Shown: positions 1 through 20,981 of the stretch, one piece after another
Position numbering within the stretch: the stretch's first letter is position 1
Layout of the letters: each line of letters begins with the position of its first letter
Assembly (NCBI GenBank): GCA_013202445.1
Contig: JABMRW010000087.1
Span: forward strand, 1 to 37,721
Direction of reading: 5' to 3'
Source: Deltaproteobacteria bacterium
Lineage (GTDB): Bacteria > Chloroflexota > Dehalococcoidia > Dehalococcoidales > BS750m-G39
Length of the DNA stretch: 37,721 nt
Made by a program: the position numbers and the translations under genes
The notes under the pieces: generated by a model
Database searches by the model: none
What the model was told of the DNA's origin: nothing
What the model saw: the letters and a program-made list of their open reading frames with translations, nothing else

Positions 1-84
1 AAGAAATTGATAGAAGTATCGCTTCTGTCGGGTGGGTCAGGGTGGGAAGTAAAACGCCCTCTAAAAACTAGCTAGTCCCGCCCC
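1..84 (+). repeat. Family-A intergenic repeat, copy A1 (short hairpin + G-tract + AAAAC..CTAAAAAC tail); may be cut by the window edge
   Basis: Nearly base-for-base match to 4134-4214 and 16542-16621 (aagaaattgatagaagta.c.cttctg...). Stem agaag/cttct at 12-26. GGGTGGGTCAGGGTGGG at 30-46. Confidence 0.8.
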
Positions 85-140
85 TTCTCCCCCCACCCCC
101 CTTTTTGTATTGCCTCCCCTTCACCCCCGTAAAAAGGAAT

Positions 141-220
141 TAAGAGAGGTCTCACCTCTATTGGGCGGGAGGGTGGGAAGAAGAACAACCGCTAACAGGC
201 GAGGGCTGTAGCCCCACCCC
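141..220 (+). repeat. Family-A intergenic repeat, copy A2
   Basis: Hairpin agaggt-ctc-acctct at 145-159, followed by GGGCGGGAGGGTGGGAAG (G-tract 163-177). The tail ..accgctaa.. resembles copy A8. Confidence 0.7.
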
Positions 221-301
221 GCTTGGTTTAGTCCTTTGGTACTCCCCCTATTTAACGGCTTTGTTTCCCCCTCCCTCAAGTTAGACCAATCACCATCGGT
301 A

Positions 302-310
302 TGCTATGAT
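302..310 (+). promoter_or_regulatory. Extended -10-like box TGCTATGAT upstream of the lipoprotein gene
   Basis: TGnTAnnAT-type motif ends 51 nt before ATG 361. SD aggagg at 349-354. No experimental support. Confidence 0.35.
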
Positions 311-360
311 AGCTATAGATTGAGTTAAAAAATCTAGCTTTAGATATTAGGAGGCGGAAA

Positions 361-1206
361 ATGTCGGCAATAAGAATAATATTAGCCCTGTCCCTGGCGC
401 TGGTGCTGTCCTTTACCCTGGTCGGTTGTAATGACAAAATCCCTCAGGACGAGATAGACCGCATCATCGAAAATGTGCTCAATGCCCAGTTTGATAGCGT
501 CAGGATGGATATGGATATGACGGCGACTGTGGAAGTAATTGGCGGGCCTGAGCCGGGTGAGATTACCATGTTTGGTGACGGCACCGGTGTTATGGACATA
601 ACTAATCAGGAAATGCGGATGACGATGAATATGACCGTAGATATACCGGAGCTGGGTGTCCAGACCATGGTCAGCAAGGTTTACCTGGTTGGAGACTGGA
701 TGTACACCGGCGTCGAGATTGCTGAATTCGGCGAGCAGTGGTTCAAGACGGAGGCGATGCCGGGCATGTGGGAGCAGCAGAGCCAGCTTGACCAGCAGAT
801 AGCCTTCCTGAAGACAGCCGTCGAGGTCAAGTCTCTACCCGACCAGGCGGTAGACGGCACCGACTGCTATGTTTTTGAGATAGTGCCCAGTGTGGAGGCG
901 TTGGGCGAGCTGCTCTCGCAGCAGAGCTCGGCTATGGGGAACATGGACTTCAGCCAGATGAACCTGGCCGACCTTTTTCAGGAAATGAAGGTCAAGGAGT
1001 GGATAGCCAGGGATAACTACCAGGTTTTGAAAACAGAGGTTTACATGCTCATGCAGATGCTCCCCGAAGATGTCGGCGCCACCGGGGCCGATTTTGATAA
1101 GATGCTCATGGGTATGAACATGACCACGAAGCTCTACGACTACAATCAGCCTGTCTCCATAAACCTGCCGGAGGCGGCGCTGAACGCTTCGGAGATGCCT
1201 TATTAG
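361..1206 (+). CDS. Putative lipoprotein, Met-rich, unknown function
   Basis: 281-aa ORF. N-terminal signal peptide ends in lipobox LVGC. Strong SD upstream. No catalytic motif recognised. Confidence 0.75.
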   Translation: MSAIRIILALSLALVLSFTLVGCNDKIPQDEIDRIIENVLNAQFDSVRMDMDMTATVEVIGGPEPGEITMFGDGTGVMDITNQEMRMTMNMTVDIPELGVQTMVSKVYLVGDWMYTGVEIAEFGEQWFKTEAMPGMWEQQSQLDQQIAFLKTAVEVKSLPDQAVDGTDCYVFEIVPSVEALGELLSQQSSAMGNMDFSQMNLADLFQEMKVKEWIARDNYQVLKTEVYMLMQMLPEDVGATGADFDKMLMGMNMTTKLYDYNQPVSINLPEAALNASEMPY

Positions 1207-1216
1207 GTAGAAGCTT

Positions 1217-1327
1217 ATGAACCGCACCGGTGGCTTTGTCAACCAGAACCGCTTCCGGTCGAGCAAGACGGTTAAAAAGCTGAACAAGGCGGCGCCGGAG
1301 AAGCGCCGGAAGCAGGAAAAGAAGTGA
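1217..1327 (+). CDS. Candidate 36-aa highly basic small protein (MNRTGGFVNQNRFRSSKTVKKLNKAAPEKRRKQEKK)
   Basis: ATG at 1217, TGA at 1325-1327. The stop overlaps the GTG start of the next ORF (GTGA), suggesting translational coupling. Below the ORF-track size cutoff and no homology recognised. Confidence 0.3.
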   Translation: MNRTGGFVNQNRFRSSKTVKKLNKAAPEKRRKQEKK

Positions 1328-1746
1328 AAACTAAAGTAAGCTGGCCCCTTTTCTGGGCGTTGTTAGGGGTTTTCGTTGTTGTCGTCTGCCTCCTGCTCAT
1401 TCCCGCCTTCGGGGGCTTACTCGGCGGCGCCGTATTTTTAATCCCGTTTGCCGTCTTCTTTCTTCTGGCCGTGGCCCTGTTGGTCTTTACCCTGCGGGAA
1501 AAAATAGCCGGGTTGCTCAAGGTATTCTTCCTGCTGACGGCGGCTTCGGCGGCCGGGGTCTTCGTCTTTATCCTGCTGCATAACGCCCTTTACGGCCTGT
1601 TAATTCACTTCTTCGGCGAAGGCTTCTGGAACGGCGGCGACGAGCCCTTCTTCTTCATCCTGGCGCTCATTGTCTGCCCGCTGGGCTTTCTGACCGGGGT
1701 TATCGGCAGTATCGTCCTTCGCATCAGGGGCGCTGTCTCGCCGTAG
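1324..1746 (+). CDS. Small integral membrane protein (about 4 hydrophobic helices)
   Basis: 140-aa ORF dominated by long hydrophobic stretches (LLGVFVVVVCLLLIPAFGG.., FLLAVALLVFTL.., FFFILALIVCPLGFLTGVIGSIVL). Confidence 0.6.
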   Translation: MKTKVSWPLFWALLGVFVVVVCLLLIPAFGGLLGGAVFLIPFAVFFLLAVALLVFTLREKIAGLLKVFFLLTAASAAGVFVFILLHNALYGLLIHFFGEGFWNGGDEPFFFILALIVCPLGFLTGVIGSIVLRIRGAVSP

Positions 1747-1754
1747 CCCCCGCC

Positions 1755-1784
1755 TTGACACTCGGAAAGGGGCGGTGCTACACT
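1755..1784 (+). promoter_or_regulatory. Candidate sigma70-type promoter TTGACA-18 nt-TACACT for nadK
   Basis: TTGACA at 1755-1760 and TACACT at 1779-1784. Lies in the 67-nt gap before ATG 1814. Confidence 0.4.
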
Positions 1785-1813
1785 TTTCTTGCCCTCAAAG
1801 CGGAATTTTCGTT

Positions 1814-2650
1814 ATGAAGATGAAAAAGGTCGGTATTCTGTACCACCCCATGATTGACACCGCCCGCACCCTGGCCGAGGAGCTTAAAGGTTTTATCGGC
1901 GCCGGGGGGGTATCGGCATGGCTTTGCTCGGCCTGGGAGGGTGAGGAGGCCAGGTCTAAAATCGATGGCACCGATTTAATAATTACCGTCGGCGGCGACG
2001 GCACTATCTTAAGGGCGGCCCAGGCGATAGTCCCCGCCCCCATCCCCATCACCGGCGTCAATCTGGGGCGGCTGGGCTTTATGACCGAGCTCAGCGCTGA
2101 GGAAGCCAGGGATAAGCTCCCCGCCCTGCTTGACGGCAAGGGCTGGCTGGATGAGCGGGCCATGCTTGAAGCCGAGCTTACCGCCGAAAATAAGCCCCCC
2201 CAGACCTTCTATGCCTTAAACGATGTAGTGGTGGCACGGGGGGAGGTGGCGCGGGTGATTTTCGTCGAAGCTCATATTAACGGCGAGCCGGTGACCACCT
2301 ATAAGGCGGACGGCGTGATTGTAGCTACCGCCACCGGCAGCACCGCCTACTCGCTGGCGGCGGGCGGACCTATACTCCACCCCCGGTCCGCCGATTTTCT
2401 GCTGTTGCCCATCTCGCCCCACCTCAGCCCGGCCTACCCGCTGGTGTTACCGGCGTCGTCGGTGGTCAGGCTCAAGGTTGATACTACTCATCAGGCGGTC
2501 TTGAGCGTCGATGGTCATATCATTCTGCCGCTGGCCAGCGGTGACGTTATAACCATAAGGCACAGCGCCAGTATCAGTCGTTTCTTGAGAATTCACTCCG
2601 GGGACTTTTACGGCTCTCTGGAGCAAAAGCTAAAGGGGAAGATAAATTGA
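1814..2650 (+). CDS. nadK: NAD(+) kinase
   Basis: Motifs TVGGDGTILRAA (GGDGT), NDVVV and ATATGSTAYSLAAGGPI. I prefer ATG 1814 (MKMKKVGILYHP) over the track's GTG 1775. Confidence 0.9.
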   Translation: MKMKKVGILYHPMIDTARTLAEELKGFIGAGGVSAWLCSAWEGEEARSKIDGTDLIITVGGDGTILRAAQAIVPAPIPITGVNLGRLGFMTELSAEEARDKLPALLDGKGWLDERAMLEAELTAENKPPQTFYALNDVVVARGEVARVIFVEAHINGEPVTTYKADGVIVATATGSTAYSLAAGGPILHPRSADFLLLPISPHLSPAYPLVLPASSVVRLKVDTTHQAVLSVDGHIILPLASGDVITIRHSASISRFLRIHSGDFYGSLEQKLKGKIN

Positions 2651-3141
2651 AGGTAGAAAAAGCCAGAATAAGCGATGTCCCCCAGGTACAGGGGCTGGTT
2701 AACCACTTTGCCGCCAAGGACGAGATGCTGCCCCGCTCGTTGAGCGAGCTCTACGAGAACCTCAGGGACTGTTTCGTTATCAGGGAGGGTGATAAGGTGG
2801 TTGCCTGCGCCTCGCTGCACGTTTTCTGGTCGGACTTGGCCGAGATAAGGTCGTTGGCGGTAGCCGAAGCTAACCAGGATAAAGGCCTGGCTGCCCGGCT
2901 GCTCAAGGCCTGCATGGAGGAAGCAGAGGAGCTGGGCATCGGCACCGTCTTCTGCCTGACCTACCAGCCGCCCATCTTTGAAAAGTTCGGCTTTAACCAG
3001 GTGGAGAAAATGGACCTGCCCAAGAAGGTCTGGACGGAGTGCTACCGCTGCCCCAAGTTCCCCGATTGCGATGAGGTAGCCCTGGTCTATAACCTTAAAC
3101 CGCCGGCGTCGGGCAAGATTGCGGGGGATTGGGTTGGCTGA
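2647..3141 (+). CDS. GNAT N-acetyltransferase, short ArgA-like (N-acetylglutamate synthase-like) form
   Basis: 164 aa. The segment ...VVACASLHVFWSDLAEIRSLAVAEANQDKGLAARLL resembles, from memory, the short mycobacterial NAGS (GALHVLWSDLGEIRTVAV). C-terminal Cys cluster CYRCPKFPDC. TTG start overlaps the nadK stop. Confidence 0.65.
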   Translation: MKVEKARISDVPQVQGLVNHFAAKDEMLPRSLSELYENLRDCFVIREGDKVVACASLHVFWSDLAEIRSLAVAEANQDKGLAARLLKACMEEAEELGIGTVFCLTYQPPIFEKFGFNQVEKMDLPKKVWTECYRCPKFPDCDEVALVYNLKPPASGKIAGDWVG

Positions 3142-3670
3142 GGAAAAGACGCTGTCCAGCCGGCGCATCTATGAAGGGCGGGCAGTAAGGCTGCGGGTGG
3201 ACACGGTTGAGCTTTCAGGCGGCCGGCAGACCACGCGTGAGGTCGTCGAACACGAAGACTGCGTGGCCATCGTCGCCGTTGACGATAAGGATAATATCCT
3301 GCTGGTAAAGCAGTTCCGCAAGCCGGTGGAGAAGGCGCTGCTGGAGATACCGGCGGGGGGCATTGACCCCGGCGAGACCCCGGAGGACTGTGTCCGCCGC
3401 GAGATGCGCGAAGAGACCGGCTTTCTCCCCCAGAAAGTAGAAAAACTGGGCGGCTTTTATTCCTCCCCGGGTTTTTGCACCGAGTACCTCTACCTCTATC
3501 TGGCCACCGACCTGGTTCACAGTCCGCTCCAGGCCGAGGATACCGATGGTATCAGTCTGGTTCGCACGCCGCTGGCTCAGATTCCGGAGCTTATCGCTTC
3601 GGGCGCTATTGTGGACGCCAAGAGCATCGCCGGCCTGCTGACTTTCCTTAAAGTACCGCCGGTCAGCTAA
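3119..3670 (+). CDS. NUDIX hydrolase (ADP-ribose pyrophosphatase-like)
   Basis: Nudix box GGIDPGETPEDCVRREMREETG. Start is uncertain: TTG 3119 or in-frame TTG 3134. Confidence 0.85.
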   Translation: MRGIGLAEEKTLSSRRIYEGRAVRLRVDTVELSGGRQTTREVVEHEDCVAIVAVDDKDNILLVKQFRKPVEKALLEIPAGGIDPGETPEDCVRREMREETGFLPQKVEKLGGFYSSPGFCTEYLYLYLATDLVHSPLQAEDTDGISLVRTPLAQIPELIASGAIVDAKSIAGLLTFLKVPPVS

Positions 3671-4004
3671 GCCTGTCTGAGAGCTTTCGCCCCCCCAGGA
3701 GGTGGAGATGAAGGTGGGGCACCAGTTGCCCGCCTTCGCTACCGCAGTTAATCGCCAGCCGGTAGCCCTTCTCAGCCACCCCCTCATCTTTAGCCAGCTT
3801 ATTGGCCACGGCCACCATGCGCCCCACCAGGGCGGCGTCGCTTTCTTTCATCTGGTCTAAAGAAGGGATGTGCTTTCTGGGGACGATGAGCAGGTGGACG
3901 GGTGCCAGTGGCTTGATATCGCGGAAGGCGATTATTTCTTCATCCTGATACAGGATTTCGGTAGGTATCTCACCGGCTATAATCTTGCAGAAGATACAGT
4001 CCAT
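3663..4004 (-). CDS. HIT-family (histidine triad) nucleotide hydrolase/transferase
   Basis: 113 aa with C-terminal HLHLHLLGG triad. Convergent 8-nt overlap with the NUDIX gene. Confidence 0.9.
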   Translation of the reverse strand: MDCIFCKIIAGEIPTEILYQDEEIIAFRDIKPLAPVHLLIVPRKHIPSLDQMKESDAALVGRMVAVANKLAKDEGVAEKGYRLAINCGSEGGQLVPHLHLHLLGGRKLSDRLS

Positions 4005-4133
4005 TTTTCTTCCCCTCCCCCCGTTTTATATCTTTATCCCCACCCCATTTTATATCTTAACCCACCCACCGCCCTTTGCGGTAAAGAGGGGTTACACCCC
4101 TCTTAAACACCCCGTTTTTACCACCCCTCCAAG
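4005..4133. repeat. C-rich mosaic spacer containing a family-B-type hairpin-2 module
   Basis: Runs of CCCC(A/T)CCCC. Hairpin aagagggg-ttaca-cccctctt at 4084-4104, followed by aaacacccc as in 16490-16520. Confidence 0.6.
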
Positions 4134-4214
4134 AAGAAATTGATAGAAGTATCACTTCTGCAGGGTGGGAGGGTGGGAAATAAAACGCACTCTAAAAACC
4201 GGGCTAATCCCCCC
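4134..4214 (+). repeat. Family-A intergenic repeat, copy A3
   Basis: aagaaattgatagaagtatcacttctgca + GGGTGGGAGGGTGGG (4163-4177) + aaataaaacgcactctaaaaacc. Confidence 0.85.
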
Positions 4215-4221
4215 TCTTGAG

Positions 4222-4779
4222 CTATTTCCCCTTTTTATATTTAGCCTTGCCCTGCTCGAAGAGGTCTTCCCCGTAAATATCGTTGGCGACGATGGCCGGG
4301 AAGTTCTCCACGGTCAGTCTCATTATGGCCTCGGTGCCCAGCTCCTCGTAGGCGATGACCTCCACCCGCTTTATGGTCCTGGCCAGCAGTGCGCCGGCGC
4401 CTCCGGTGGTGACCAGGTAGACGGCTTTGTATTTCCTGATGGCCTCTCTTACCTCCGCTGAACGGTTGCCCTTGCCTATCATGGCTTTAACGCCGGCGGC
4501 GAGGAGCTGCGGGGTATATTTATCCATGCGCTGGCTGGTGGTGGGCCCCGCTGAGCCGATAACCTGCCCGGCTCTGGCCGGGGAAGGCCCCATATAGTAC
4601 AGAGTCTGGCCTTTCAGGTCGAAGGGCAGCTCGTCCCCCCTGTCCAGCGCCTGGATTAGTCTATGGTGGGCGGCGTCCCGGGCGGTGTAGATAACGCCGG
4701 ATATAGTAACCCGCGTGCCGACGGTCAGCTTTTCGATTATTTCTTCTTTAATCGGCGATATAATATTCATCAACCCCAC
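4222..4779 (-). CDS. fumB: Class I (Fe-S) fumarate hydratase, beta subunit (C-terminal-domain type); tartrate dehydratase beta not excluded
   Basis: 185 aa. Motifs GPTTSQRMD, KAMIGKGNR and TTGGAGAL are typical of the beta-type Fe-S hydro-lyase domain. Paired with the alpha subunit gene upstream. Confidence 0.8.
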   Translation of the reverse strand: MGLMNIISPIKEEIIEKLTVGTRVTISGVIYTARDAAHHRLIQALDRGDELPFDLKGQTLYYMGPSPARAGQVIGSAGPTTSQRMDKYTPQLLAAGVKAMIGKGNRSAEVREAIRKYKAVYLVTTGGAGALLARTIKRVEVIAYEELGTEAIMRLTVENFPAIVANDIYGEDLFEQGKAKYKKGK

Positions 4780-4980
4780 CCCCGTTTATATCTTATCCCG
4801 CCCCCACCCCATTTTTAACAGTTCTCTATCTTCCCATACCCACCCGCCCAAAATGGGCTTCGCCCCTCTTAAACTTCCTTTTTTACCCCACCCCACTTTT
4901 AAAATAACTTCTTCTTTCCGCCCTGGCCCACCCTCGTGGGCTGCGCTTCTAAAACTTTCTTTACCACCCCCCCAAAAGTA
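4780..4980. repeat. C-rich mosaic spacer between the two fumarase subunit genes
   Basis: CCCATACCCACCCGCCC at 4833-4849 also occurs at 21004-21020 and, with one substitution (..CCCACCC), at 18754-18770. 4911-4980 aligns with 9303-9370 (shared ggctgcgcttct). Confidence 0.75.
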
Positions 4981-5058
4981 GAGCGAAGAGAGGTTCTAAC
5001 CTCTATCGGGTGGGAGGGTGGGAAATAAAACATTCTCTAAAAACCAGGTAGTTCCCCC
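4981..5058 (+). repeat. Family-A intergenic repeat, copy A4
   Basis: Hairpin gagaggt.ctaacctct followed by GGGTGGGAGGGTGGG (5008-5022) and aaataaaacattctctaaaaacc. Confidence 0.85.
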
Positions 5059-5059
5059 T

Positions 5060-5905
5060 TTATAATATAGCCTCCTTGTGGCGGGCGCTGTGGCACTGCA
5101 AATTGACCGCCACCGGCAGGCTGCCGATATGGGCGGGCATAACTAAAGCGTGCACGGCCAGGGCGGTGGTGCCGCCCCCGTAGCCCATAGGCCCTATTCC
5201 CAGTTCGTTTACCCCGGCTAAAATATCTTTCTCCAGCTTAGCGACCTCCGGGTCGGCATTGGGCTCGGCAACCGTTCGCAGCAGCGCCTTCTTGGCCAGG
5301 AGCATCGCCTTATCGGCGGTGCCCCCCACCCCCACCCCGATAATCAAGGGCGGGCAGGCGTTGCCCCCCGCCTCGTCCACCACTCTCGCCACCAGCTCGA
5401 TGATGCCCTGGCTGCCCTGGTTGGGCAGTAGCATGGCCAGCTGGCTCATGTTCTCGGCGCCGCCCCCCTTGGGCATGACCGTAATCTTTAGTTTATCACC
5501 GGGGACTATTTCGGCGTGGATGACGGCCGGGGTGTTGTCTCTGGTGTTGATTCTTTCGGAGAAGGGCTGTTTGACTATGGCTTTCCTCAGGCAGCCCTCG
5601 TCGTAGCCCTGGCGCACCCCCTCCTCTATGGCGGCGTACAGGTCCCCGCCGCTGATGTGGATATCCTGGCCTATTTCCAGGAAGACGGCGGCGGTGCCGC
5701 AGTCCTGGCAGAGGGCTATACGTTCGTCTTTGGCCACTCCGGCGTTCTCGATAAGCTGGGTCAGTACTTCTTTACCAAGCGGGGACTCTTCGGTCTTTAG
5801 GGCTTTCTTTAGGGCGAAAAGCACGTCTTCCCCCAGCCCGAAGTTGGCTTCCTGGCAGAGGGTGGATATAACTTTAGTTATTTCGGTGGCTTTAATTTCT
5901 TTCAT
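5060..5905 (-). CDS. fumA: Class I (Fe-S) fumarate hydratase, alpha subunit (N-terminal-domain type)
   Basis: 281 aa. Motifs ALCQDCGTA, PKGGGAENMS and GNACPPLIIGVGVGGT match the catalytic Fe-S hydro-lyase alpha domain. Confidence 0.85.
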   Translation of the reverse strand: MKEIKATEITKVISTLCQEANFGLGEDVLFALKKALKTEESPLGKEVLTQLIENAGVAKDERIALCQDCGTAAVFLEIGQDIHISGGDLYAAIEEGVRQGYDEGCLRKAIVKQPFSERINTRDNTPAVIHAEIVPGDKLKITVMPKGGGAENMSQLAMLLPNQGSQGIIELVARVVDEAGGNACPPLIIGVGVGGTADKAMLLAKKALLRTVAEPNADPEVAKLEKDILAGVNELGIGPMGYGGGTTALAVHALVMPAHIGSLPVAVNLQCHSARHKEAIL

Positions 5906-5936
5906 TTTATATTTAAGGTGACCCCATCCCCTGTAT

Positions 5937-5997
5937 CCCCTTCCCCTTCACAAGGGGAAGGGGAAGGAAATTATTTAAAGAGGGGCTGCGCTCCTCT
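5937..5997. repeat. Family-B double-hairpin repeat, copy B1
   Basis: Perfect 12-bp stem ccccttcccctt/aaggggaagggg (5937-5963), an A/T-rich spacer, then hairpin agagg..cctct (5979-5997). Confidence 0.8.
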
Positions 5998-6096
5998 CCG
6001 ACTCCCCTTTTAGTATCTCCTTCAAAGGAGAGGCGAGATAGCTGGGTGGTTATAACTTTACCTCCACGTTAGGTAAGAGGCAAGTCTTAACATTAA

Positions 6097-6993
6097 CTAG
6101 GGCTGGAAGCGAAAACTATCAAATGGGTCATAAAGAGGGGAAAGGGAATGGTATTCCTCAAAGGCTGTTGGAACGGCTGAACTTACGATTTCATAGACCT
6201 TCCCCTCATACAGGACAAAATAATGTCTATTATCCCATCTCTGCCCACCTGCCAAGCAAGTGTACTCAATTCTCTTTACCGTGTAACCCTTGTCGTGTAT
6301 GTCAGTTGATTCATTTATTTCCACTTCATGAAAGAAGTCCTTAAGCCAAGAAACCTTTGCCAGTACGTACTCATTTAAGTCTGTGTAGTGTTGGTCGTTT
6401 ATCTCGGTGAGGACATTTGACTTAGAATCGGGGCTACATATCAAAACCCCGCTTATGCTTTGGTTAATCACTACCCAAGAAGGAGGATAATCAAAACAGT
6501 AGCTATATTCATTGTTACAATAAGTCTTAAGGGTAATCTCTTCTAATAGCTTTACTGCCTCTTCATTCTGAGCTGTTACCTCTCCAGTTCTTTCATTGAC
6601 CCGCCATTCCCATTCACTTACGGTGACTGACCACAATCCATCTCCACTATACTTTGCTAGTCTCATTAGTGCACCTGTCCAGACTACTGTTTTCAGGGGT
6701 TGCGGCTGTCCTAGTACTGGCTCGTCAAGTTCCATCTCAACCAATTCGCCTAGGTCGTCTTTCTCTATCGCCTTCTCATTAGCCTCCAGAACAGCGTTTC
6801 TGAACCCCCAGCCTATGATAATCTTCTCCCCTTCAGCATAAACACCTTGCAGTTGCTCAGCTTTAGCTATTAAATAATCGTATGTCATCTGAATAACTTG
6901 CTTCTCAGTAAGTGCTCCATGCTCTCTACAACTAGATATCAACAATGAAGCCAGCACCAAAATCAGCAGAATCAATATTAAGTATCGTTTCAT
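6097..6993 (-). CDS. Lipoprotein of unknown function, in a low-GC cassette
   Basis: I prefer the internal ATG at 6993 (MKRYLILILLILVLASLLISSC, lipobox LISSC), which has SD gagagg upstream. The C-terminal half has a loosely PsbP/DcrB-like pattern (weak). A sampled 60-nt line is about 43% GC against about 70% in mdh. Confidence 0.65.
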   Translation of the reverse strand: MKRYLILILLILVLASLLISSCREHGALTEKQVIQMTYDYLIAKAEQLQGVYAEGEKIIIGWGFRNAVLEANEKAIEKDDLGELVEMELDEPVLGQPQPLKTVVWTGALMRLAKYSGDGLWSVTVSEWEWRVNERTGEVTAQNEEAVKLLEEITLKTYCNNEYSYCFDYPPSWVVINQSISGVLICSPDSKSNVLTEINDQHYTDLNEYVLAKVSWLKDFFHEVEINESTDIHDKGYTVKRIEYTCLAGGQRWDNRHYFVLYEGKVYEIVSSAVPTAFEEYHSLSPLYDPFDSFRFQP

Positions 6994-7012
6994 TGTATGC
7001 CTCTCGCCCATC

Positions 7013-7246: not shown

Positions 7247-7248
7247 AA

Positions 7249-8184: not shown

Positions 8185-8185
8185 T

Positions 8186-9262: not shown

Positions 9263-9302
9263 ATTTATTTATTCTACCCCCTCCCCCTTGTTGAAGTCTT
9301 GT

Positions 9303-9453
9303 ATTACTTCCCGCACCGCCCGCCCTCATAGGCTGCGCTTCTGTAACTTGCTTCCCCACCCCCCAAAAAAGGAGAGTGAAGAGAGGTATAACTTCTATAG
9401 GGTGGGAGGGTGGGAAATAAAACGCAATCTAAAAATTTAGCTAATCCCTCCCC
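9303..9453 (+). repeat. Composite repeat (C-rich arm + family-A copy A5), about 150 nt, paralogous to 4911-5058
   Basis: Alignable along its length to 4911-5058. GGGTGGGAGGGTGGG at 9400-9414. The ends TTCCCGCACCGCCCGCCC and GGGTGGGAGGGTGGGAA form an imperfect inverted repeat. Confidence 0.8.
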
Positions 9454-9468
9454 TTATCCCCCTCTATA

Positions 9469-11217: not shown

Positions 11218-11238
11218 TTAAGCCCTTGCTAGTAGCTC

Positions 11239-13149: not shown

Positions 13150-13169
13150 TGGATTTCTTCCCCTTTTTA

Positions 13170-13262
13170 TTATTTTTTAACGGGAGCAGGTGGCTTTTCC
13201 GCCTTGATATAGGTGATGACGGCGCTGATGATGGCGGCAGTTAGCTTCTTTTTGTCTTTCAT
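13170..13262 (-). CDS. Candidate 30-aa small subunit-like peptide (MKDKKKLTAAIISAVITYIKAEKPPAPVKK)
   Basis: The internal Met of the 72-aa track ORF starts 17 nt after the 12S stop. The AAIISAVITY segment resembles the short OadG/decarboxylase-associated peptides, but only weakly and from memory. Confidence 0.3.
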   Translation of the reverse strand: MKDKKKLTAAIISAVITYIKAEKPPAPVKK

Positions 13263-13278
13263 CTTATTCCTGCCGCTC

Positions 13279-14823
13279 TTACAGTGGAATATTGCCGTGT
13301 TTTTTCTGGAGGCGTGGGCCTGGCGGCCCCTCCAGCGTCTCCAGCGCCCTGATGAGCCTGGCGCGGGTCTGCCTGGGGTCGATGACATTATCTATATAGC
13401 CCCGCCCTGCCGCCAGGTAGGGGTGAGCGAACTTCTCCTTGTAGTCGCTTACCAGTTGTTTTCTGGTTTCGTCCGGTTTGTCGGAGTTGGCTATAGCCTG
13501 CTTAAAGAGGATATTTACCGCCCCCTCCGGCCCCATGACGGCAATCTCGGCGCTGGGCCAGGCGTAGTTGATGTCCCCCCGCAGGTGCTTGGAGCTCATC
13601 ACGATGTAAGCCCCCCCGTAGGCCTTGCGGGTGATAACGGTGATTTTGGGCACGGTGGCCTCGGCGTAGGCGTAGATGAACTTGGCGCCGTGCCGGATGA
13701 TGCCCCCCTTCTCCTCCTTGGGCCCGGGCATAAAGCCGGGGACGTCGACGAAGCTGACCAGGGGGATGTTAAAGGCGTCGCAGAAGCGGACGAAGCGGGC
13801 CCCCTTGACCGAGGCGTTGATATCGATAATCCCGGCCATATGGGCCGGCTGCTGGGCGACTATACCCACCGCCTTGCCGTCCAGTCGGGCAAAACCGACG
13901 ATTAAATTAGAAGCGAAGTCCTGGTGAACCTCCATAAAGTCGCCGTTGTCGACCACGCTGGTAATTATACGCTTCATGTCGTAGACCTTGCCCGAATCAT
14001 CCGGTATGATTTCGAGCAGGTTTTCATCAGTCCGGTTGGGGTCGTCGCTCGGTTTTATTCGGGGCGGGTCGTCGCGGAAGCTCTGGGGGAGGTAGCCTAA
14101 CAGGCGGCGCACCTTCTCCAGACACTCCTGTTCACTGTCGGTGACGAAGTGGGCTACCCCGCTCTTCTCGGAGTGGACTTTAGCCCCGCCCAGCTCCTCG
14201 TGGCTGATGTCTATACTTATCACCGCCTTGACCACGTCGGGGCCGGTGATGTACATCTGGCTTATCCCCTCCACCATAAAGACGAAATCGGTTATGGCCG
14301 GCGAGTAAACAGCGCCCCCCGCCGATGGCCCCATCACCACCGATATCTGCGGGATGACGCCGGAACACAGCGTGTTGCGCAAAAGGATGTCGCCGACGCC
14401 GCCCAGGCTGCCCACCCCTTCCTGGATGCGGGCGCCCCCGGAGTCCCAGATGGCGATGACCGGCGCTCCCTTTTTAACGGCTAAATCGATAACCTTGCAG
14501 GCTTTTTTGGCCGATACCTCGGAGATGGTCCCGCCGAGGACGGTGAAGTCCTGGGAATAAATAAAGACCAGGCGGCCGTCTATTTTCCCTGAGCCGGCGA
14601 CCACGGAATCGCCCAGGTATTTTTGGTCGGCTAACCCGAACTCGGTGGCCTGGTGGGTGACGAAGGGGTCAAGCTCCTCAAAGCTGCCTTTATCCAGCAG
14701 CAGGTCAATTCTCTCCCTAGCGGTCAGCTTGCCTTTGGCGTGCTGCTGCTCGATGCGCTTGGCTCCGCCCCCCGCCCGGGCTTGCTTTTCCATCTTTGTT
14801 AGTTTGGCCAGTTTATCTTTCAT
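13279..14823 (-). CDS. Acyl-CoA carboxyltransferase, 12S / propionyl-CoA carboxylase beta type (methylmalonyl-CoA carboxyltransferase-like)
   Basis: Two carboxyl-transferase halves (…GGARIQEGV…, …GGAYIVMSSK…). I prefer ATG 14823 (MKDKLAKLTKMEKQ) over the track start at 14877. Confidence 0.85.
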   Translation of the reverse strand: MKDKLAKLTKMEKQARAGGGAKRIEQQHAKGKLTARERIDLLLDKGSFEELDPFVTHQATEFGLADQKYLGDSVVAGSGKIDGRLVFIYSQDFTVLGGTISEVSAKKACKVIDLAVKKGAPVIAIWDSGGARIQEGVGSLGGVGDILLRNTLCSGVIPQISVVMGPSAGGAVYSPAITDFVFMVEGISQMYITGPDVVKAVISIDISHEELGGAKVHSEKSGVAHFVTDSEQECLEKVRRLLGYLPQSFRDDPPRIKPSDDPNRTDENLLEIIPDDSGKVYDMKRIITSVVDNGDFMEVHQDFASNLIVGFARLDGKAVGIVAQQPAHMAGIIDINASVKGARFVRFCDAFNIPLVSFVDVPGFMPGPKEEKGGIIRHGAKFIYAYAEATVPKITVITRKAYGGAYIVMSSKHLRGDINYAWPSAEIAVMGPEGAVNILFKQAIANSDKPDETRKQLVSDYKEKFAHPYLAAGRGYIDNVIDPRQTRARLIRALETLEGPPGPRLQKKHGNIPL

Positions 14824-14936
14824 GGTCACACCATTATTTAGAGTAATTATGCGTACAGATGCCAATGATAATATCACAGTGAGAGTGTTTTAGGCAAGTT
14901 CTGAAGCTAATTATAGGGTACCCTCACCCCCTTAAT

Positions 14937-14997
14937 CCCCCTCTCCCTTGAGGGAGAGGGGGAAATAAAATTAAAAAGAGGGGCTAGCGCCCCTCTT
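14937..14997. repeat. Family-B double-hairpin repeat, copy B2 (likely minus-strand terminator for 15096..15482)
   Basis: Stem ccccctctccct/agggagaggggg (14937-14962). Hairpin aagaggggc-tagc-gcccctctt (14976-14997). On the minus strand the second hairpin is followed by TTTAATTTTATTT. Confidence 0.75.
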
Positions 14998-15095
14998 GGA
15001 CTCCCTATTATAATTTGGAGGTTTGCCTCTCTTAAACACCCAGTCTTGTTATTGGATTTCTCGCCGGGGTAATATTGTGTCTGTCTCAGCAGGTA

Positions 15096-15482
15096 TTATT
15101 GTATTATTGGTGGAGCAGCTTCAGGCTCGCAACTAATCCAGATAAGCGATATTTTATTAGTCCCCTCCGTATACGTCCATGTAGTCGAGCCATAAAGGTC
15201 TTCACCTTTGTACTTGACCACAACTGCTCCTTGAATTCTCCATTGTCCATCACCCTCATAAGCAGCAGCCCAATCCCCCACTGGATTCATGTGTCCGTAC
15301 GTTCCCAGCTGTTCATCTTCCGGCAAGTAACTGTTAATGTAGGGCACGCCATAGACCTTGATTACGGAAATGACCTGTTCGTTAGTTGAGGTAGGGCGGT
15401 CAGTCGCAGCACAACCTAGAAGCGAAACAACGACTAAAACGGCAAAACCAATAAGCAATAGCCGCTTAGCTTTATTTTTCAT
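15096..15482 (-). CDS. Small lipoprotein of unknown function (low-GC cassette)
   Basis: 128 aa. Signal peptide with lipobox LLGC. A sampled 60-nt line is about 45% GC. Confidence 0.6.
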   Translation of the reverse strand: MKNKAKRLLLIGFAVLVVVSLLGCAATDRPTSTNEQVISVIKVYGVPYINSYLPEDEQLGTYGHMNPVGDWAAAYEGDGQWRIQGAVVVKYKGEDLYGSTTWTYTEGTNKISLIWISCEPEAAPPIIQ

Positions 15483-15574
15483 TTCAGTTTCCCCCCTGAT
15501 ACCTAATAATACTACGTGTTAATAGGCTGTCAAGTAGCACCCTATCAGACCATCATGCCCCCCTTTTAGGGGTG

Positions 15575-15660
15575 TTAAAGAGGGTGCTAACCCCTTTAGG
15601 GTGGGTCAGGGTGGGAAGAAAAACACCCGCTAGCAGGGGGTGGGCTAAAAACCCAGCTTA
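15575..15660 (+). repeat. Family-A intergenic repeat, copy A6
   Basis: Imperfect hairpin, then GGGTGGGTCAGGGTGGG (15599-15615) and aagaaaaacacccgcta. Confidence 0.7.
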
Positions 15661-15663
15661 AAG

Positions 15664-16365
15664 CTACCGCCTGCCGACGGGGATTATATACAGGGGCTGT
15701 TCATCGGCGGGCAGATTGAGCAGTTGGCTTACCTGGTCATCATGAAAGGCGCCTACCGTCACGGCTCCCAGCCCCAGGGCGGTGGCCTGGAGGCACAGGT
15801 TCTGGGCGGCGTGCCCCGCCTCCATGTGGACGTATCTTACGCCCCTGTCGCCGTATTTAACGGTTGTCCTTTCGTAAACGGCGGTGAAGACAATGGAGAC
15901 GGCTCCCTCCTTTACCCAGGCCTGCCCCAGCGCGGCCTCGGCTAACTCGGCTCGCCTATCACCATCCATGGTTTTAACCAGTTGGTGGCCGTCCGGTTGA
16001 TAGCGGTAAACCCCCGCTGTCAAATCTTCCCCATCACCCGCCACCAGATATAGCTCCAGCGGGTACAGCGCCCCGGCCGATGGCGCCGCTCTTAAGCCCC
16101 CGGGGTCGGTAAGCCCCTGGGCCGCCCATAGCAGCTGAGATAGTTCCTGGAGTGTTAGCGGCTCGCCGGTGTAGCTCCTGATTGACCTCCGGTTAAGCAG
16201 GCTTTGCTCAAGAGATACCTCGCTGTCGTAGCTTAGCTCGGGTAGCTTTATCACCTCGGCTTGCTCCTGGGAAGGCGTTGGGGTTAGCTCTGGTTGGGGA
16301 CAGCCGCAGAGAGTCACCAGCAGTATGGCTAGAGTGGTCAGATAATACCGATAATAACGCCCCAT
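15664..16365 (-). CDS. SagB-type / nitroreductase-fold dehydrogenase with lipoprotein-type signal peptide
   Basis: 233 aa. N-terminus [22 protein letters not shown]. Core [27 protein letters not shown] is typical of the SagB/ThcOx nitroreductase family. Confidence 0.75.
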
Positions 16366-16448
16366 CTTTTACCTCCCCGCCACTCTGTATCATACATAAT
16401 AGCCGATTTTAACCGTCTGTCAAGATTTATCAACCTCACCCCCTTAAT

Positions 16449-16512
16449 CCCCCTCTCCACTCTTGGAGAGGGGGATTTTTTTTCTTTAGAAGAGGGGGCT
16501 TCGCCCCCTCTT
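16449..16512. repeat. Family-B double-hairpin repeat, copy B3 (plus-strand intrinsic-terminator geometry)
   Basis: Stem ccccctctcca/tggagaggggg (16449-16474) followed by an 8-T run (16476-16483). Hairpin aagagggggc/gccccctctt (16490-16512). Confidence 0.8.
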
Positions 16513-16541
16513 AAACACCCCTTTTCCCCACCCCCCTAATA

Positions 16542-16621
16542 AAGAAATTGATAGAAGTACCACTTCTGTAGGGTAGGAGGGTGGGAAGCAAAACACACGC
16601 CAAAAACCTGACTCCACCCCC
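16542..16621 (+). repeat. Family-A intergenic repeat, copy A7 (degenerate G-tract)
   Basis: aagaaattgatagaagtaccacttctgta + GGGTAGGAGGGTGGG (16571-16585; the second tract is reduced to GG). Confidence 0.8.
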
Positions 16622-16752
16622 TTAGCCTCCGCTTAACATAACGCTAATAACAAATCCCACGCTCAACCACGCCTGAATTGTTTCCCCCATTTTTTTAGTG
16701 CTGTTTTTCCTTCCCCTTCTCCCCTCACCATCTAGCCACCCCGCCCAAAGGG

Positions 16753-16761
16753 TGCTAAAAT
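16753..16761 (+). promoter_or_regulatory. Extended -10 box TGCTAAAAT immediately upstream of folP (implies a leaderless or near-leaderless mRNA)
   Basis: The box ends 10 nt before ATG 16772. There is no SD between them. Confidence 0.4.
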
Positions 16762-16771
16762 ATGATTAGCT

Positions 16772-17665
16772 ATGGAAAGCCGGTCAACTTTAGCCGTCAC
16801 ACGCTGCGGGAACCTTGATTTGCGCTGGGGGCAGCGCACCTATGTCATGGGCATCCTCAACGTTACCCCGGATTCTTTCTCCGGCGACGGCGTTGGTGAT
16901 GATGTTGAAGCCGCCCTGGCCCGGGCAAGGCAGCTGGCCGAAGAAGGCGCCGATATTATAGATATAGGCGGCGAGTCCACCCGCCCCGGCGCCCCGCCGG
17001 TATCGGCCGAAGAAGAGCTAAGGCGGGTGATTCCGGTTATCGAAAGGCTGGCGGCGGAGCTGGCCGTCCCGATAAGCGTTGATACCTGTAAATCAGGGGT
17101 GGCGGAAAAAGCTTTGGAGGCGGGGGCAAAGATGCTCAACGACCAGTGGGGCTTAAAGCACGACCCCCGTCTGGCCGAACTGGCCGCCAAGTGGAACGTC
17201 CCCATAATTCTGATGAGCAACCAGCGGGATAAAGGCGGCTATGATGCCGCCCTCAAGCGTGATACTGCAGATTATAATGACCCCATAGCGGAGATAACGG
17301 CTTCTCTGAAGGGAAGCCTGGAGATAGCCTCGCAGGCCGGTGTGCCCCGGGAAAACATTATCTTAGACCCCGGCATCGGCTTCGGCAAGAGCTGGCAGCA
17401 CGACCTGGAGATAGTCTGGCGCTTGGCGGAATTAAAAGAGCTGGGACGGCCCCTCCTCATCGGCCCCTCCGGCAAGTCCTTCATCGGCAAGGTGCTGGAC
17501 CTGCCCGTTGACGACCGCCTGGAGGGCACCGCCGCCGTCGTGGCCGTCGGCATCGTCCATGGCGCCGATATGGTTCGTGTCCACCAGGTCGGGCCGCTGG
17601 TGCGGGTCTGCCGGATGTGCGACGCTATTATCCGTAAGGAGGCAAAGTGGGGACTGAACCGGTAA
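16772..17665 (+). CDS. folP: Dihydropteroate synthase
   Basis: Motifs VMGILNVTPDSFSGDG, DIGGESTRPGA and DPGIGFGK. Confidence 0.92.
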   Translation: MESRSTLAVTRCGNLDLRWGQRTYVMGILNVTPDSFSGDGVGDDVEAALARARQLAEEGADIIDIGGESTRPGAPPVSAEEELRRVIPVIERLAAELAVPISVDTCKSGVAEKALEAGAKMLNDQWGLKHDPRLAELAAKWNVPIILMSNQRDKGGYDAALKRDTADYNDPIAEITASLKGSLEIASQAGVPRENIILDPGIGFGKSWQHDLEIVWRLAELKELGRPLLIGPSGKSFIGKVLDLPVDDRLEGTAAVVAVGIVHGADMVRVHQVGPLVRVCRMCDAIIRKEAKWGLNR

Positions 17666-18141
17666 CCGCCTATCTCGGTCTGGGCTCCAACCTGGGAGAC
17701 CGCCAGGCCAATCTGGACAAGGCGCTGGCGCTGCTCTCGGAGAGGCTGCGCCTGGTGAAGATTTCCTCTATATACGACTCCGAGCCGGTCGGCGATATTG
17801 AACAGCCCCGATTTCTCAACCTGGTCTGTGAGGCCAGCACTTTTCTACCCCCCCAGGGGCTGCTGGCTCTGGCCAAGGGCATTGAAATCAGGATGGGCCG
17901 CACCGGCCCCACCGGCGCCCCCCGCATCATTGATATAGACGTCCTCTTATACAGCGACCAGGTCATCGAAACCCCGGAGCTTACTATTCCCCACCCCCGG
18001 TTTCACCAGCGGGCTTTCGTGCTGGTGCCCCTGGCCGAGATTGCCCCGGACCTGACCCACCCGGTGAGCGGCAAGACCATCAAGCAGCTGCTCAAGGAGG
18101 CCAAGGAGGTACAGGGCGTATTCAAGTGGGAGGGAGGTTAG
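17647..18141 (+). CDS. folK: 2-amino-4-hydroxy-6-hydroxymethyldihydropteridine pyrophosphokinase (HPPK)
   Basis: Motifs AYLGLGSNLGDR, PRIIDIDVLLY and LTIPHPRFHQRAFVLVPL. GTG start overlaps the folP 3' end. Confidence 0.9.
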   Translation: MGTEPVTAYLGLGSNLGDRQANLDKALALLSERLRLVKISSIYDSEPVGDIEQPRFLNLVCEASTFLPPQGLLALAKGIEIRMGRTGPTGAPRIIDIDVLLYSDQVIETPELTIPHPRFHQRAFVLVPLAEIAPDLTHPVSGKTIKQLLKEAKEVQGVFKWEGG

Positions 18142-18142
18142 G

Positions 18143-18514
18143 GTGTACCGGATATCGGTAGAGCAGCACTTTGACGCCGCCCACTATTTAAGGGGCTATC
18201 AGGGCAAGTGCGAGGCGATGCACGGCCACAGCTACAAGGTGGTGGTAAAGGTGGACGCCTCTGAACTTAACGATATCGGCCTGGCCTACGATTTCGTGGA
18301 GCTTAAAAAGCATTTAGCCGGGGTGATAGACCGCTTCGACCACACCTGCCTCAACGATGCCCCCCCCTTCGATAAGCTCAATCCCTCGGCGGAAAACATC
18401 GCCGCCGATATCTATAAAGAGCTTAAATCTAGGCTGGAGGGGGCGCCGGTCACCATCGCTAACGTAGAGGTGTGGGAATCCCCCCAGACCGGCGTCATCT
18501 ACACGCCGGATTAG
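18143..18514 (+). CDS. 6-pyruvoyl-tetrahydropterin synthase family protein (QueD / PTPS-III-like)
   Basis: 123 aa. Motif GKCEAMHGHSY carries both a Cys-x3-HGH and a Glu-x2-HGH arrangement. Sits directly downstream of folP-folK. Confidence 0.85.
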   Translation: MYRISVEQHFDAAHYLRGYQGKCEAMHGHSYKVVVKVDASELNDIGLAYDFVELKKHLAGVIDRFDHTCLNDAPPFDKLNPSAENIAADIYKELKSRLEGAPVTIANVEVWESPQTGVIYTPD

Positions 18515-18690
18515 GCGCGCTGCTCCGGCGGCAGCAGGTTGGGGATGCCGTTGGTGATGGGGTAGTCCACCCGGCAGTTGGGGCAGTTAAGGGAGCCGCT
18601 GATTATCTCCTCCTTCTCCTCGGCCACGGTTAGTTTCAGCTCACCCTTGCACACCGGGCAGGCAAGAATATCCATCAATTCTCTCTTCAT
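18511..18690 (-). CDS. Trm112-family small zinc-ribbon-like protein (59 aa; not in the ORF track)
   Basis: My translation of the minus strand: MKRELMDILACPVCKGELKLTVAEEKEEIISGSLNCPNCRVDYPITNGIPNLLPPEQRA. CPxC...CPxC plus the PI.NGIP.LL motif. 4-nt convergent overlap with the PTPS gene. Confidence 0.8.
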   Translation of the reverse strand: MKRELMDILACPVCKGELKLTVAEEKEEIISGSLNCPNCRVDYPITNGIPNLLPPEQRA

Positions 18691-18731
18691 GGGCTTTATT
18701 ATACCACTGAATCCCCTTTTTTACCCCACCC

Positions 18732-18810
18732 CTTTTTAAGTTTTATATTTCTTCCCATACCCACCCACCCAAAAGGTTTCACCTTTTTTCATATCTCTAA
18801 CCCCCACCCC
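18732..18810. repeat. 79-nt C-rich unit, near-identical paralog of 20982-21060
   Basis: ctttttaagttttatatttcttcccatacccacccacccaaaaggtttcacc... compared with the same string at 20982-21060, with a few substitutions or indels. Confidence 0.85.
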
Positions 18811-18897
18811 CGAAGTGAGGGACTAGGGTGCCAACCCCGGTAGGGTGGGAGGGTGGGAAGAACATCAACCGCTAAAAGGCTCTGTCCTAAGCCCCCC
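18811..18897 (+). repeat. Family-A intergenic repeat, copy A8
   Basis: Hairpin-like gagggactagggtgccaaccccgg, then GGGTGGGAGGGTGGG (18843-18857) and aagaacatcaaccgctaaaagg. Confidence 0.75.
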
Positions 18898-20885: not shown

Positions 20886-20981
20886 TTTCAAATGGGGTAT
20901 TTCCCCCCTCTTCCAGCACAACTTTTTATTCCCAACCCGCCCTATAAGGGTTCCTCCATTTCTTATCCTTTTTCCTCCCCT

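Follow-up and report, generated by a model that had tools for sequence, protein, structure and literature searches.

The 37.7-kb stretch of DNA analysed here (the window; contig JABMRW010000087.1 of assembly GCA_013202445.1) is ordinary chromosomal DNA of a Dehalococcoidia bacterium, and between its genes recurs a non-coding repeat unit of about 80 nt that consists of a small hairpin, a tract of four short G-runs (the G-core) and an A-rich tail. The family to which these units belong is real, abundant and previously undescribed in Dehalococcoidales. With moderate confidence, we regard the copies as short, non-coding, modular repeats of the same kind as repetitive extragenic palindromes (REPs), bacterial interspersed mosaic elements (BIMEs) and REPINs, which have spread through the intergenic DNA of an uncultured Dehalococcoidales clade. 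Units stand alone, in tandem and, most of all, as head-to-head doublets, mixed with GC hairpins and with a palindrome resembling Box C. A first-pass annotation of the window had likened them to a miniature inverted-repeat transposable element (MITE) or a REP, and this view is borne out by their presence or absence at orthologous sites, by the location of 169 of 184 units outside open reading frames (ORFs) and by the lack of a transposase nearby. The family is abundant enough to reshape intergenic DNA, where it splits translationally coupled gene pairs and supplies sequences that resemble ribosome-binding sites.

A degenerate search pattern of 21 bases, with an estimated chance expectation of less than one in 596 Gb, matched at least 107 stretches of 8 kb, almost all of them from about 25 metagenome-assembled genomes (MAGs) of Dehalococcoidia/Dehalococcoidales, and the set defined by this pattern comprised 184 units. 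A profile hidden Markov model (nhmmer), built on 146 units from related genomes, found 318 units in 1.05 Mb. The copy number in the MAGs is likely to be underestimated, because the repeats probably break short-read assemblies. Many units lie within about 100 nt of contig ends (L002, L003, L007, L010, L012, L039, L049, L057, L067, L090 and L099).

There was no match to the family in IMG/VR or in the plasmid and phage collections. Rfam gave no match at gathering thresholds and only chance-level matches at permissive ones (E of about 0.4 or more), and nothing relevant to the motif or to repeats of Dehalococcoidia was present in the literature searched. A eukaryotic lncRNA (long non-coding RNA) model of Rfam that overlapped a unit at 4960-5109 scored 22.6 bits against a threshold of 60, which is noise. 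The units do not make up a CRISPR array, in that adjacent units differ in hairpin and loops, the would-be spacers carry conserved motifs, and only two or three units stand together, in mixed orientation. Two matches of the pattern in Streptomyces look like chance palindromes. The long perfect palindrome at 5340-5470 of L061 (Streptomyces hokutonensis), with outer arms TTTCCCACCCACCCACCC and GGGTGGGTGGGTGGGAAA, has nothing else in common with the Dehalococcoidia family, and the pattern probably hit it by chance.

Anatomy of the unit and its G-core

The eight plus-strand copies named in the first-pass annotation lie where it had placed them or within a few bases (nhmmer envelopes), and their G-tracts read as it had described, including the degenerate copy at 16571-16585. 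It had also taken the family to be always G-rich on the same strand; the profile finds five members on the minus strand, and orientations are mixed elsewhere. The three CCCATACCCACCC(G/A)CCC sites that it had recorded (4833-4849, 18754-18770 and 21004-21020) are real, and on the minus strand the CCCATACCC sites have the anatomy of the plus copies, with hairpin, four G-runs, AAGAAATATAAAAC, TTAAAAA and GGGGTGGGG. The features in the window are as follows.

1-85, plus strand: unit 1 (nhmmer), subfamily A, truncated by the window edge; hairpin at about 11-25, G-core 30-46 GGGTGGGTCAGGGTGGG, tail GTAAAACGCCCTCTAAAAAC
127-212, plus strand: unit 2 (nhmmer); hairpin AGAGGTCTCACCTCT, G-core 163-177 GGGCGGGAGGGTGGG, alternative tail AACCGCTAACAGG
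4128-4217, plus strand: unit 3 (nhmmer), subfamily A; hairpin AGAAGTATCACTTCT, G-core 4163-4177 GGGTGGGAGGGTGGG, tail ATAAAACGCACTCTAAAAACCGGGCTAATCCCCCC
4992-5061, plus strand: unit 4 (nhmmer), earlier placed at 4981-5058; G-core 5008-5022 GGGTGGGAGGGTGGG
9369-9455, plus strand: unit 5 (nhmmer); G-core 9400-9414 GGGTGGGAGGGTGGG
15563-15647, plus strand: unit 6 (nhmmer); G-core 15599-15615 GGGTGGGTCAGGGTGGG
16536-16609, plus strand: unit 7 (nhmmer), subfamily A, one G-run decayed; core 16571-16585 GGGTAGGAGGGTGGG
18814-18879, plus strand: unit 8 (nhmmer), right half of a head-to-head doublet; G-core 18843-18857 GGGTGGGAGGGTGGG
18725-18797, minus strand: subfamily B unit (nhmmer), left half of the doublet with unit 8; hairpin AAAGGTGAAACCTTT, core 18754-18770 GGGTGGGTGGGTATGGG, tail AAGAAATATAAAACTTAAAAAGGGGTGGG
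4887-4963, minus strand: subfamily B unit (nhmmer); core 4918-4933 GGGTGGGCCAGGGCGG, fourth run decayed to GG
4802-4877, minus strand: subfamily B unit (nhmmer), in tandem with the unit at 4887-4963; core 4833-4849 GGGCGGGTGGGTATGGG
20976-21050, minus strand: subfamily B unit (nhmmer) between two plus-strand genes; core 21004-21020
20890-20952, minus strand: weak, decayed unit with three G-runs GGGCGGGTTGGG (nhmmer, E = 0.0037)
9285-9345, minus strand: decayed inverted partner of unit 5, below the nhmmer threshold; hairpin AGAAGCGCAGCCT, core GGGCGGGCGGTGCGGG at about 9310-9325
4035-4085, minus strand: decayed or variant partner of unit 3; core 4061-4074 GGGCGGTGGGTGGG, then TTAAGATATAAAATGGGGTGGGG
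18716-18886: head-to-head doublet with C-core, two small hairpins and G-core; predicted long imperfect hairpin, z = -3.0
4774-4802, minus strand: G-run linker GGGGTGGGG with TTAAAAA before it, just upstream of the fumB start codon and resembling a ribosome-binding site

A distance of 4 nt separates the end of unit 3 from the stop codon of the minus-strand gene fumB, and unit 4 adjoins the stop codon of fumA within the split fumA-fumB junction, where the unit at 4887-4963 is its head-to-head partner (core starts 75 nt apart). On the minus strand, unit 6 has a tail that forms a stem (CACCC..GGGTG) followed by TTTTTCTT, directly after the nitroreductase stop codon, and unit 7 lies in a divergent intergenic region upstream of a sigma-70-like promoter (16423-16396, minus strand). 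Linkers join the modules, and further copies of them begin at 4038, 4886, 18724, 21052, 21123 and 91.

A unit opens with the lead-in (A)AGAGAGTTTTAGA or AAGAAATTGAT, and this is followed by a hairpin of 6 bp with a loop of 3-5 nt, a variable spacer of 2-4 bases (such as GTA, ATA, TGA, ATC and ATT), the nearly invariant core GGG(T/C)GGG-N1-3-GGGTGGGAA and the A-rich tail (G/A)NAAAAC-N5-6-(C/T)TAAAAA. Subfamily B terminates in the G-run GGGGTGGGG and subfamily A in CCGGGCTAATCCCCCC, and a third type of tail is found in window copies 2, 6 and 8. The tail that had been given for all copies, CTAAAAAC, is right for one subfamily and does not describe these three.

The hairpin drifts in sequence while its pairing is kept, as had been proposed for the window copies. 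In 84 units, 82% of the hairpin cells are paired, compared with 37-57% when the partner column is slid; all six pairs covary, with 78 double-sided changes in the stem where shuffles give 30.5 +/- 8.4 (0 of 500). The 24-nt segment preceding the core has a mean folding energy of -5.2 kcal/mol, compared with -1.8 kcal/mol in shuffles. The stems found within one window or one genome include AGAAG/CTTCT, AGAGG/CCTCT, AGGC/GCCT, GGGT/ACCC and others. Neither strand is favoured as RNA, because A:C departures from pairing are as frequent as G:T departures (35 and 38). A family of structured cis-regulatory RNAs or small RNA genes, borne on the G-rich transcript, would also present a covarying hairpin next to a conserved sequence and an A-rich tail in intergenic positions. 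We consider such a family very improbable in view of the balance between these two kinds of departure and the absence of a match in Rfam even at permissive thresholds. Moreover, the units occur in all four configurations of flanking genes, convergent ones included, no promoter or terminator is consistently found at their edges, and their tandem and inverted mosaic arrangement is atypical of RNA genes.

The imperfect inverted ends that had been ascribed to the 80-nt element could not be recovered. Set against the reverse complement of the last 24 nt, the first 24 nt of single units showed no terminal inverted repeats, the best 10-nt end window matching at 6.24 bases compared with 6.05 in shuffles (114 units). 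Only the paired halves of a doublet were inverted copies of one another, and the G-core lies inside the unit and not at its end. Small ORFs were rejected as well: neither start codon nor frame is consistent among the units, and the period is not divisible by three. Mimicry of a Shine-Dalgarno sequence by GGGAGGG was also discarded, since the variants GGGTCAGGG and GGGCTGGG are without GGAGG.

Conservation within the unit is highest in the G-tract. In loci retrieved through the fumB protein, and hence unselected for the motif, the columns of the G-runs are conserved at 90% or more and those of the hairpin and tail at 40-90%. Four G3 runs are retained in 277 of the 305 distinct units (91%). Subfamily A copies retrieved by the hairpin alone keep them in 40 of 46 cases, and three of the six exceptions are single G-to-A changes. 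The loops vary in length and sequence: the first is T in 181 units and C in 91, the second has 1 nt (150 units), 2 nt (59) or 3 nt (64) with many sequences, and the third is T (240) or TAT (32). In the window, the core has six matches with at most two mismatches where 0.22 are expected, and there are 19 canonical G-quadruplex (G4) motifs compared with 3.0 in shuffles; the canonical (G3+ N1-7)x4 motif is matched by seven of the eight plus copies and by three minus copies.

Conserved runs with free loops match what a quadruplex would require, and the tract had rightly been called a canonical short-loop G4 motif, with G4Hunter scores of 2.06-2.40 for the cores. When quadruplexes were allowed in ViennaRNA, each of the six copies folded had one in its minimum-energy structure, in five of them by a wide margin (in one example, -49.8 kcal/mol with the quadruplex compared with -32.3). 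Published work shows parallel G4 folding for oligonucleotides of much the same sequence, d(GGGT)4 among them. Judging from these folding models, four G3 runs with loops of 1-3 nt can form a parallel G-quadruplex on the G-rich strand. The near-invariant T of the third loop and the trailing AA exceed what a quadruplex needs, which suggests sequence-specific recognition in addition.

These properties could be those of a functional switch between quadruplex and hairpin, kept by the host for local control of transcription, translation or replication. Such a switch would agree with the retention of the core at an orthologous site across diverged lineages (see below), and with the C-core that lies 48-196 nt upstream in the doublets and pairs with the G-core in the predicted fold. 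Nevertheless, we find the switch rather unlikely. A complementary CCCNCCC heptamer occurs within 62 nt upstream in only 56 of 277 units (20%), and since orientation is random with respect to genes, an effect at the RNA level would be restricted to half of the copies. Quadruplex folding also leaves the invariant third-loop T and the trailing AA unexplained, and the elements are freely gained and lost at the same junction. The alternation between hairpin and quadruplex through an upstream C-run, which had been proposed for the element, does not hold for units in general and would apply at most to inverted doublets.

Doublets, strand polarity and gene context

Among neighbouring units at most 260 nt apart, 39 pairs are in tandem, 54 are head-to-head with the hairpin sides facing and three are tail-to-tail. 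Spacings in the tandem pairs peak sharply at 76-84 nt, and the period is about 79 nt. A head-to-head doublet reads, on one strand, as C-core, two small hairpins and G-core, with the two cores 48-196 nt apart, and the commonest doublet joins a half of subfamily A to a half of subfamily B. In the doublet at 18716-18886 the C-core pairs with the G-core in the predicted long hairpin, and the doublet at 4886-5062 folds less clearly (z = -1.7). Window units 3, 4, 5 and 8 have an inverted partner 73-89 nt upstream. The leading C-rich run, which had been counted as a part of the unit, is instead the C-core of this inverted partner or its remnant, or a C-run linker. The family has inverted doublets able to form a hairpin, as REPINs do, and short intergenic modules that recur in variable order and orientation, as in BIMEs.

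In the window all subfamily A halves are on the plus strand and all subfamily B halves on the minus strand because of the local arrangement of the doublets. We infer that the eight same-strand copies reflect this layout and not a rule of the family. Adjacent units in other genomes are on the same strand in 44 cases and on opposite strands in 32, and both orientations occur within a few hundred bases in related genomes. The G-run/C-run linkers (GGGGNGGG vs CCCNCCCC) are C-rich on the plus strand in six of the seven unit-bearing intergenic regions between 3788 and 21305, whatever the gene direction. Regions in other 8-kb loci are concordant by 5 to 1 in a tiny sample, and a regional, perhaps replication-linked polarity of the linkers is possible.

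Eight strong copies on one strand over 19 kb, regardless of gene direction, together with a linker polarity that is unrelated to the flanking genes (sense 18, antisense 16), might also be taken for a strand-polar DNA signal oriented by the replication arms, such as an FtsK-orienting, Chi-like or nucleoid-protein site. This seems quite improbable to us, because opposite orientations stand side by side in most loci and units follow the local majority gene strand about as often as they oppose it (58 and 61). A binding site in duplex DNA needs no covarying hairpin, and elements of 80-170 nt in tandem and mosaic arrangement are unlike the skewed motifs of 8 nt; in addition, the sample on which the regional polarity is based is tiny.

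The flanking genes are divergent for 35 units, co-directional for 32 in sense and 29 in antisense, and convergent for 20. In independent loci the tail points toward a gene start in 13 cases and toward a gene end in 14, and no bias relative to flanking genes is seen there, whether for all units, for subfamilies A and B or for linker polarity. An apparent preference of subfamily A for stop codons vanished in independent loci, and it was due to orthologous copies in the syntenic set. The genes that have units on both sides are housekeeping genes.

Some copies are placed as if they served the adjacent genes. The terminal GGGGTGGGG stands 3-12 nt before start codons in sense orientation (fumB in the window, L134, L150 and L170), and for nine of 40 subfamily B units a start codon lies no more than 15 nt from the end. 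In the window, four plus-strand units have a stop codon of the opposite strand at most 16 nt from their end, the tail of unit 6 provides a stem and a T-run, and neighbouring modules at 14997-14976 and 16446-16477 are terminator-like. It could be argued from this that the elements are cassettes for operon punctuation (terminators, ribosome-binding sites or mRNA stabilisers) spread by recombination, with the G-tract as an incidental part. We hold this to be clearly improbable, as orientation with respect to genes is random in independent loci and as it leaves unexplained why the G-runs are the most conserved part. The core unit itself was never flagged as a terminator: the 22 terminator-like sites, whose count is at the shuffle expectation, include no unit, and a stem directly followed by a T-run is seen only in the minus-strand reading of the unit 6 tail. 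Under our preferred interpretation as REP-like or BIME-like modules, inserted copies may sometimes be put to use, the terminal GGGGTGGGG as a ribosome-binding site and some tails as terminators.

A reading of the units as promoters was rejected, in that the unit and its tails do not match sigma-70 hexamers. Near-consensus promoters (TTGACA-16-TATTAT) are located between units and genes at 16423-16396 and 15533-15506, both on the minus strand, upstream of the nitroreductase gene and of the ORF 15096-15482, respectively. Their occurrence in the window indicates that the organism uses canonical promoters.

Gain and loss at gene junctions

The nearest genome in the species-level collection is MAG JAUVYB01, which is labelled 'Deltaproteobacteria' yet is clearly Dehalococcoidales-like, and its coding DNA is about 91% identical to that of the window. 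Though the genes are collinear, the intergenic regions of the two cannot be aligned. The JGI contig L108, from the same strain, is 99.96% identical to part of the window, and no polymorphism was seen in this comparison.

We compared 80 syntenic metagenome loci around fumA, fumB and the HIT gene. Between fumA and fumB there is a 4-nt overlap (ATGA or ATAA) in 19 loci and a gap of 1-38 nt in 17 loci, and the remaining loci contain 64-280 nt of mosaic modules, of which the window holds four. A single subfamily B unit (93 nt) occupies this junction in L150, and a single A+B doublet of about 170 nt does so in L121 and L134; in two loci, gaps of 511 and 621 nt apparently contain an inserted ORF instead. 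Between fumB and HIT, some loci have a gap of 2-11 nt and others one of 164-316 nt. Since genes that overlap in some relatives are separated by modules elsewhere, the elements are gained and lost.

A short AGAGGGATT at the fumB/HIT junction of L109, L112 and L114 matches the end of the element and resembles a remnant of deletion. The C-terminus of fumB in these loci (L109 3020-3052, L112 642-674, L114 948-980) reads AAGAGGGATT(T/A)ATAATG, matching the subfamily A terminus AGAGGGATTAG fused to the HIT start codon, like a footprint. In about half of the relatives with overlapping fumA and fumB, the overlap is ATAA, not ATGA (L125, L127, L135, L138, L140, L145, L152, L162, L174 and L183; compare L111, L113 and L116). 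In these ATAA loci the next upstream stop is reached without any in-frame ATG, GTG or TTG, and GGAGG lies 7 nt upstream. Judged from the sequence, fumB seems to start there at ATA or through termination and reinitiation.

Known repeat systems and a possible basis of recognition

To our knowledge, REP, BIME, REPIN and MITE families, which are well studied in Proteobacteria, are essentially undescribed in Chloroflexota. Chloroflexota dominate many anoxic sediments and are known mostly from MAGs. REPINs are inverted doublets of REPs that are mobilised by RAYTs (PMC3337134, PMC3116915). Like the REP/REPIN-RAYT systems of Pseudomonas and Enterobacteria, the family in the window consists of short, extragenic, palindromic and non-coding units in many copies, forms inverted doublets that can be folded as a long hairpin, persists across related species and is gained or lost at orthologous sites. 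Unlike them, it keeps only the pairing of the palindrome and conserves the flanking G-tract, its doublets usually combine halves of different subfamilies, tandem arrays with a regular spacing of about 79 nt are frequent, its hosts belong to the phylum Chloroflexota and no RAYT/Y1 gene was found in 1.05 Mb.

BIMEs and Box C are known repeats of E. coli, and BIMEs are known for the binding of IHF, gyrase and Pol I. As in BIMEs, the intergenic regions here combine a number of short modules that recur in changing order and orientation; in contrast to them, the G-core unit has no sequence relation to the PU/REP of E. coli, and BIMEs are not known to include a G4 motif. Box C is paralleled by a co-occurring module of the same architecture, CCTCACCC..CCCTCTCC-N4-GGAGAGGG. 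This second module, CCTCACCCCCTTAATCCCCCTCTCC-N4-GGAGAGGGGG, stands at 5921-5967, 14921-14962 and 16440-16477, often with a T-run after it, which makes it terminator-like, and it is also found at the fumA-fumB junction of L126, L128, L136, L147, L151, L153, L154 and L173. The repeat in the hrpB-mrcB spacer of E. coli, TTCACCCTCACCCTAACCCTCTCCCTTAAGGGAGAGGGGAC, which we take to be Box C, shares its architecture, with a weak blastn match (83% over 42 nt, E of about 0.8).

Correia elements of Neisseria and MIRUs of Mycobacterium are small non-autonomous insertions that may carry ribosome-binding sites, promoters or terminators. The window family resembles both in forming small insertions in intergenic regions and within operons, and resembles MIRUs in placing modules between operon genes whose stop and start codons overlap in relatives. 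It differs in that single units have no terminal inverted repeats, that no clear target-site duplication or related transposase was found, that its period of about 79 nt is not a multiple of three and that it has no embedded small ORFs. Repeats of GGGNATC and GGGGA(C/T)T that form G-quadruplexes have been reported in Xanthomonas and Nostoc (PMC4692102). These are likewise abundant, dispersed and mostly intergenic, have exactly four G-tracts and often lie near stop codons or upstream of ORFs. They are simple tandem heptamers of variable unit number, whereas in the window family the loops are of 1-3 nt, the G-tract is fixed within an 80-nt unit of hairpin and tail, and whole units form the doublets and arrays.

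If the copies are mobile modules of the REP/BIME/REPIN kind, the hairpin with its G-tract, in single units or doublets, may be the signature read by a mobilising or host protein on single-stranded nucleic acid, and such recognition would explain why this signature is conserved. The four G3 runs could fold as a parallel G-quadruplex on the G-rich strand and, in doublets, could pair with the C-tract of the partner instead.

Several observations weigh against this interpretation. In classical REPs, the sequence of the palindrome is what the RAYT reads; here the stems vary widely within a genome, and the conserved palindrome and 5' tetranucleotide of a REP are absent, as neither the stems nor the spacer bases before the core are constant. 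GGGTGGGAA varies less than G4 folding by itself would demand. The first-pass statement that no transposase is present agrees with our scan of the window ORFs against Pfam, which gave no transposase domain among the ORFs scanned, a few short ones being left out, and the precomputed Pfam calls on L108 (ORFs of window 361-4004) include none. A RAYT/TnpA-REP gene was not found either: a phmmer search with a single IS200 TnpA probe sequence, together with a scan for the HUH...Y motif, gave no IS200-like or HUH/Y1 protein in 5424 ORFs from 1.05 Mb, a sample that covers a few per cent of each genome. Independent insertions between fumA and fumB are flanked on both sides by ATAA(A), which is ambiguous as a target-site duplication because both reading frames must survive and selection could impose the same picture; at the fumB/HIT junction no clear duplication was seen. 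Unit 5 has orthologs with an intact core at the junction of isocitrate dehydrogenase and the aconitase small subunit in two other MAG lineages, in which the flanking coding DNA is only about 73-76% identical to that of the window. Finally, a different and longer repeat in the Dehalococcoidia MAG df1c8e39 (OZ250168 / CBDEGW01) has only the G-core plus AAAAC in common with the window family. The persistence of unit 5 and the presence of the core in a quite different repeat hint at a constraint at the level of the host, and not at purely selfish elements.

The repeat of MAG df1c8e39, CAGAGAACCTAGGTTCTCTG...CTGAGGGGTGTCCCCTCAG...GACATATC-GGGTGGGTGGGTGGGAAAGAAAAC-GTCTGCTGTTGGACTTTTTG, has at least 15 copies and was seen in L018, L020, L022, L036, L074, L079, L085, L101 and L102.

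We also considered that the hairpin with GGGNGGG-N-GGGTGGGAA is a structure-specific site, a G-quadruplex beside a stem, for a new Dehalococcoidia system. This system could be a mobilising enzyme of a new kind, or a factor with regional strand polarity that organises the chromosome or is linked to replication. A site of this sort would explain the invariant core, shared by the subfamilies and by distantly related repeats of other Dehalococcoidia, the fixed head-to-head order and the regional polarity of the linkers, and we deem it unlikely; if it were true, a bacterial repeat family would for the first time be seen to rely on a G-quadruplex for its spread or its function. With a textbook motif for a parallel G-quadruplex next to its hairpin, the family is a natural test case for whether quadruplexes have a role in bacteria, and it may be of use as a marker for strain typing and for tracing the enzyme that moves such elements.

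The genes of the window encode a two-subunit fumarase, malate and isocitrate dehydrogenases, an aconitase-family pair, carboxylase subunits, a nitroreductase, products of folate genes, TctA/TctC, an ECF transporter and two repeat-rich coiled-coil proteins; a search for tRNA and tmRNA genes in the window gave none. The two repeat-rich proteins are paralogs, encoded on the plus strand at 19137-20885 (582 aa) and 21592-23181 (529 aa) by dozens of degenerate repeats of 45/57 nt with the motif E-A-x-x-I-I-x-E-A. Their Pfam signals are weak (ATP-synthase-B, DivIVA-like), and they resemble long coiled coils.

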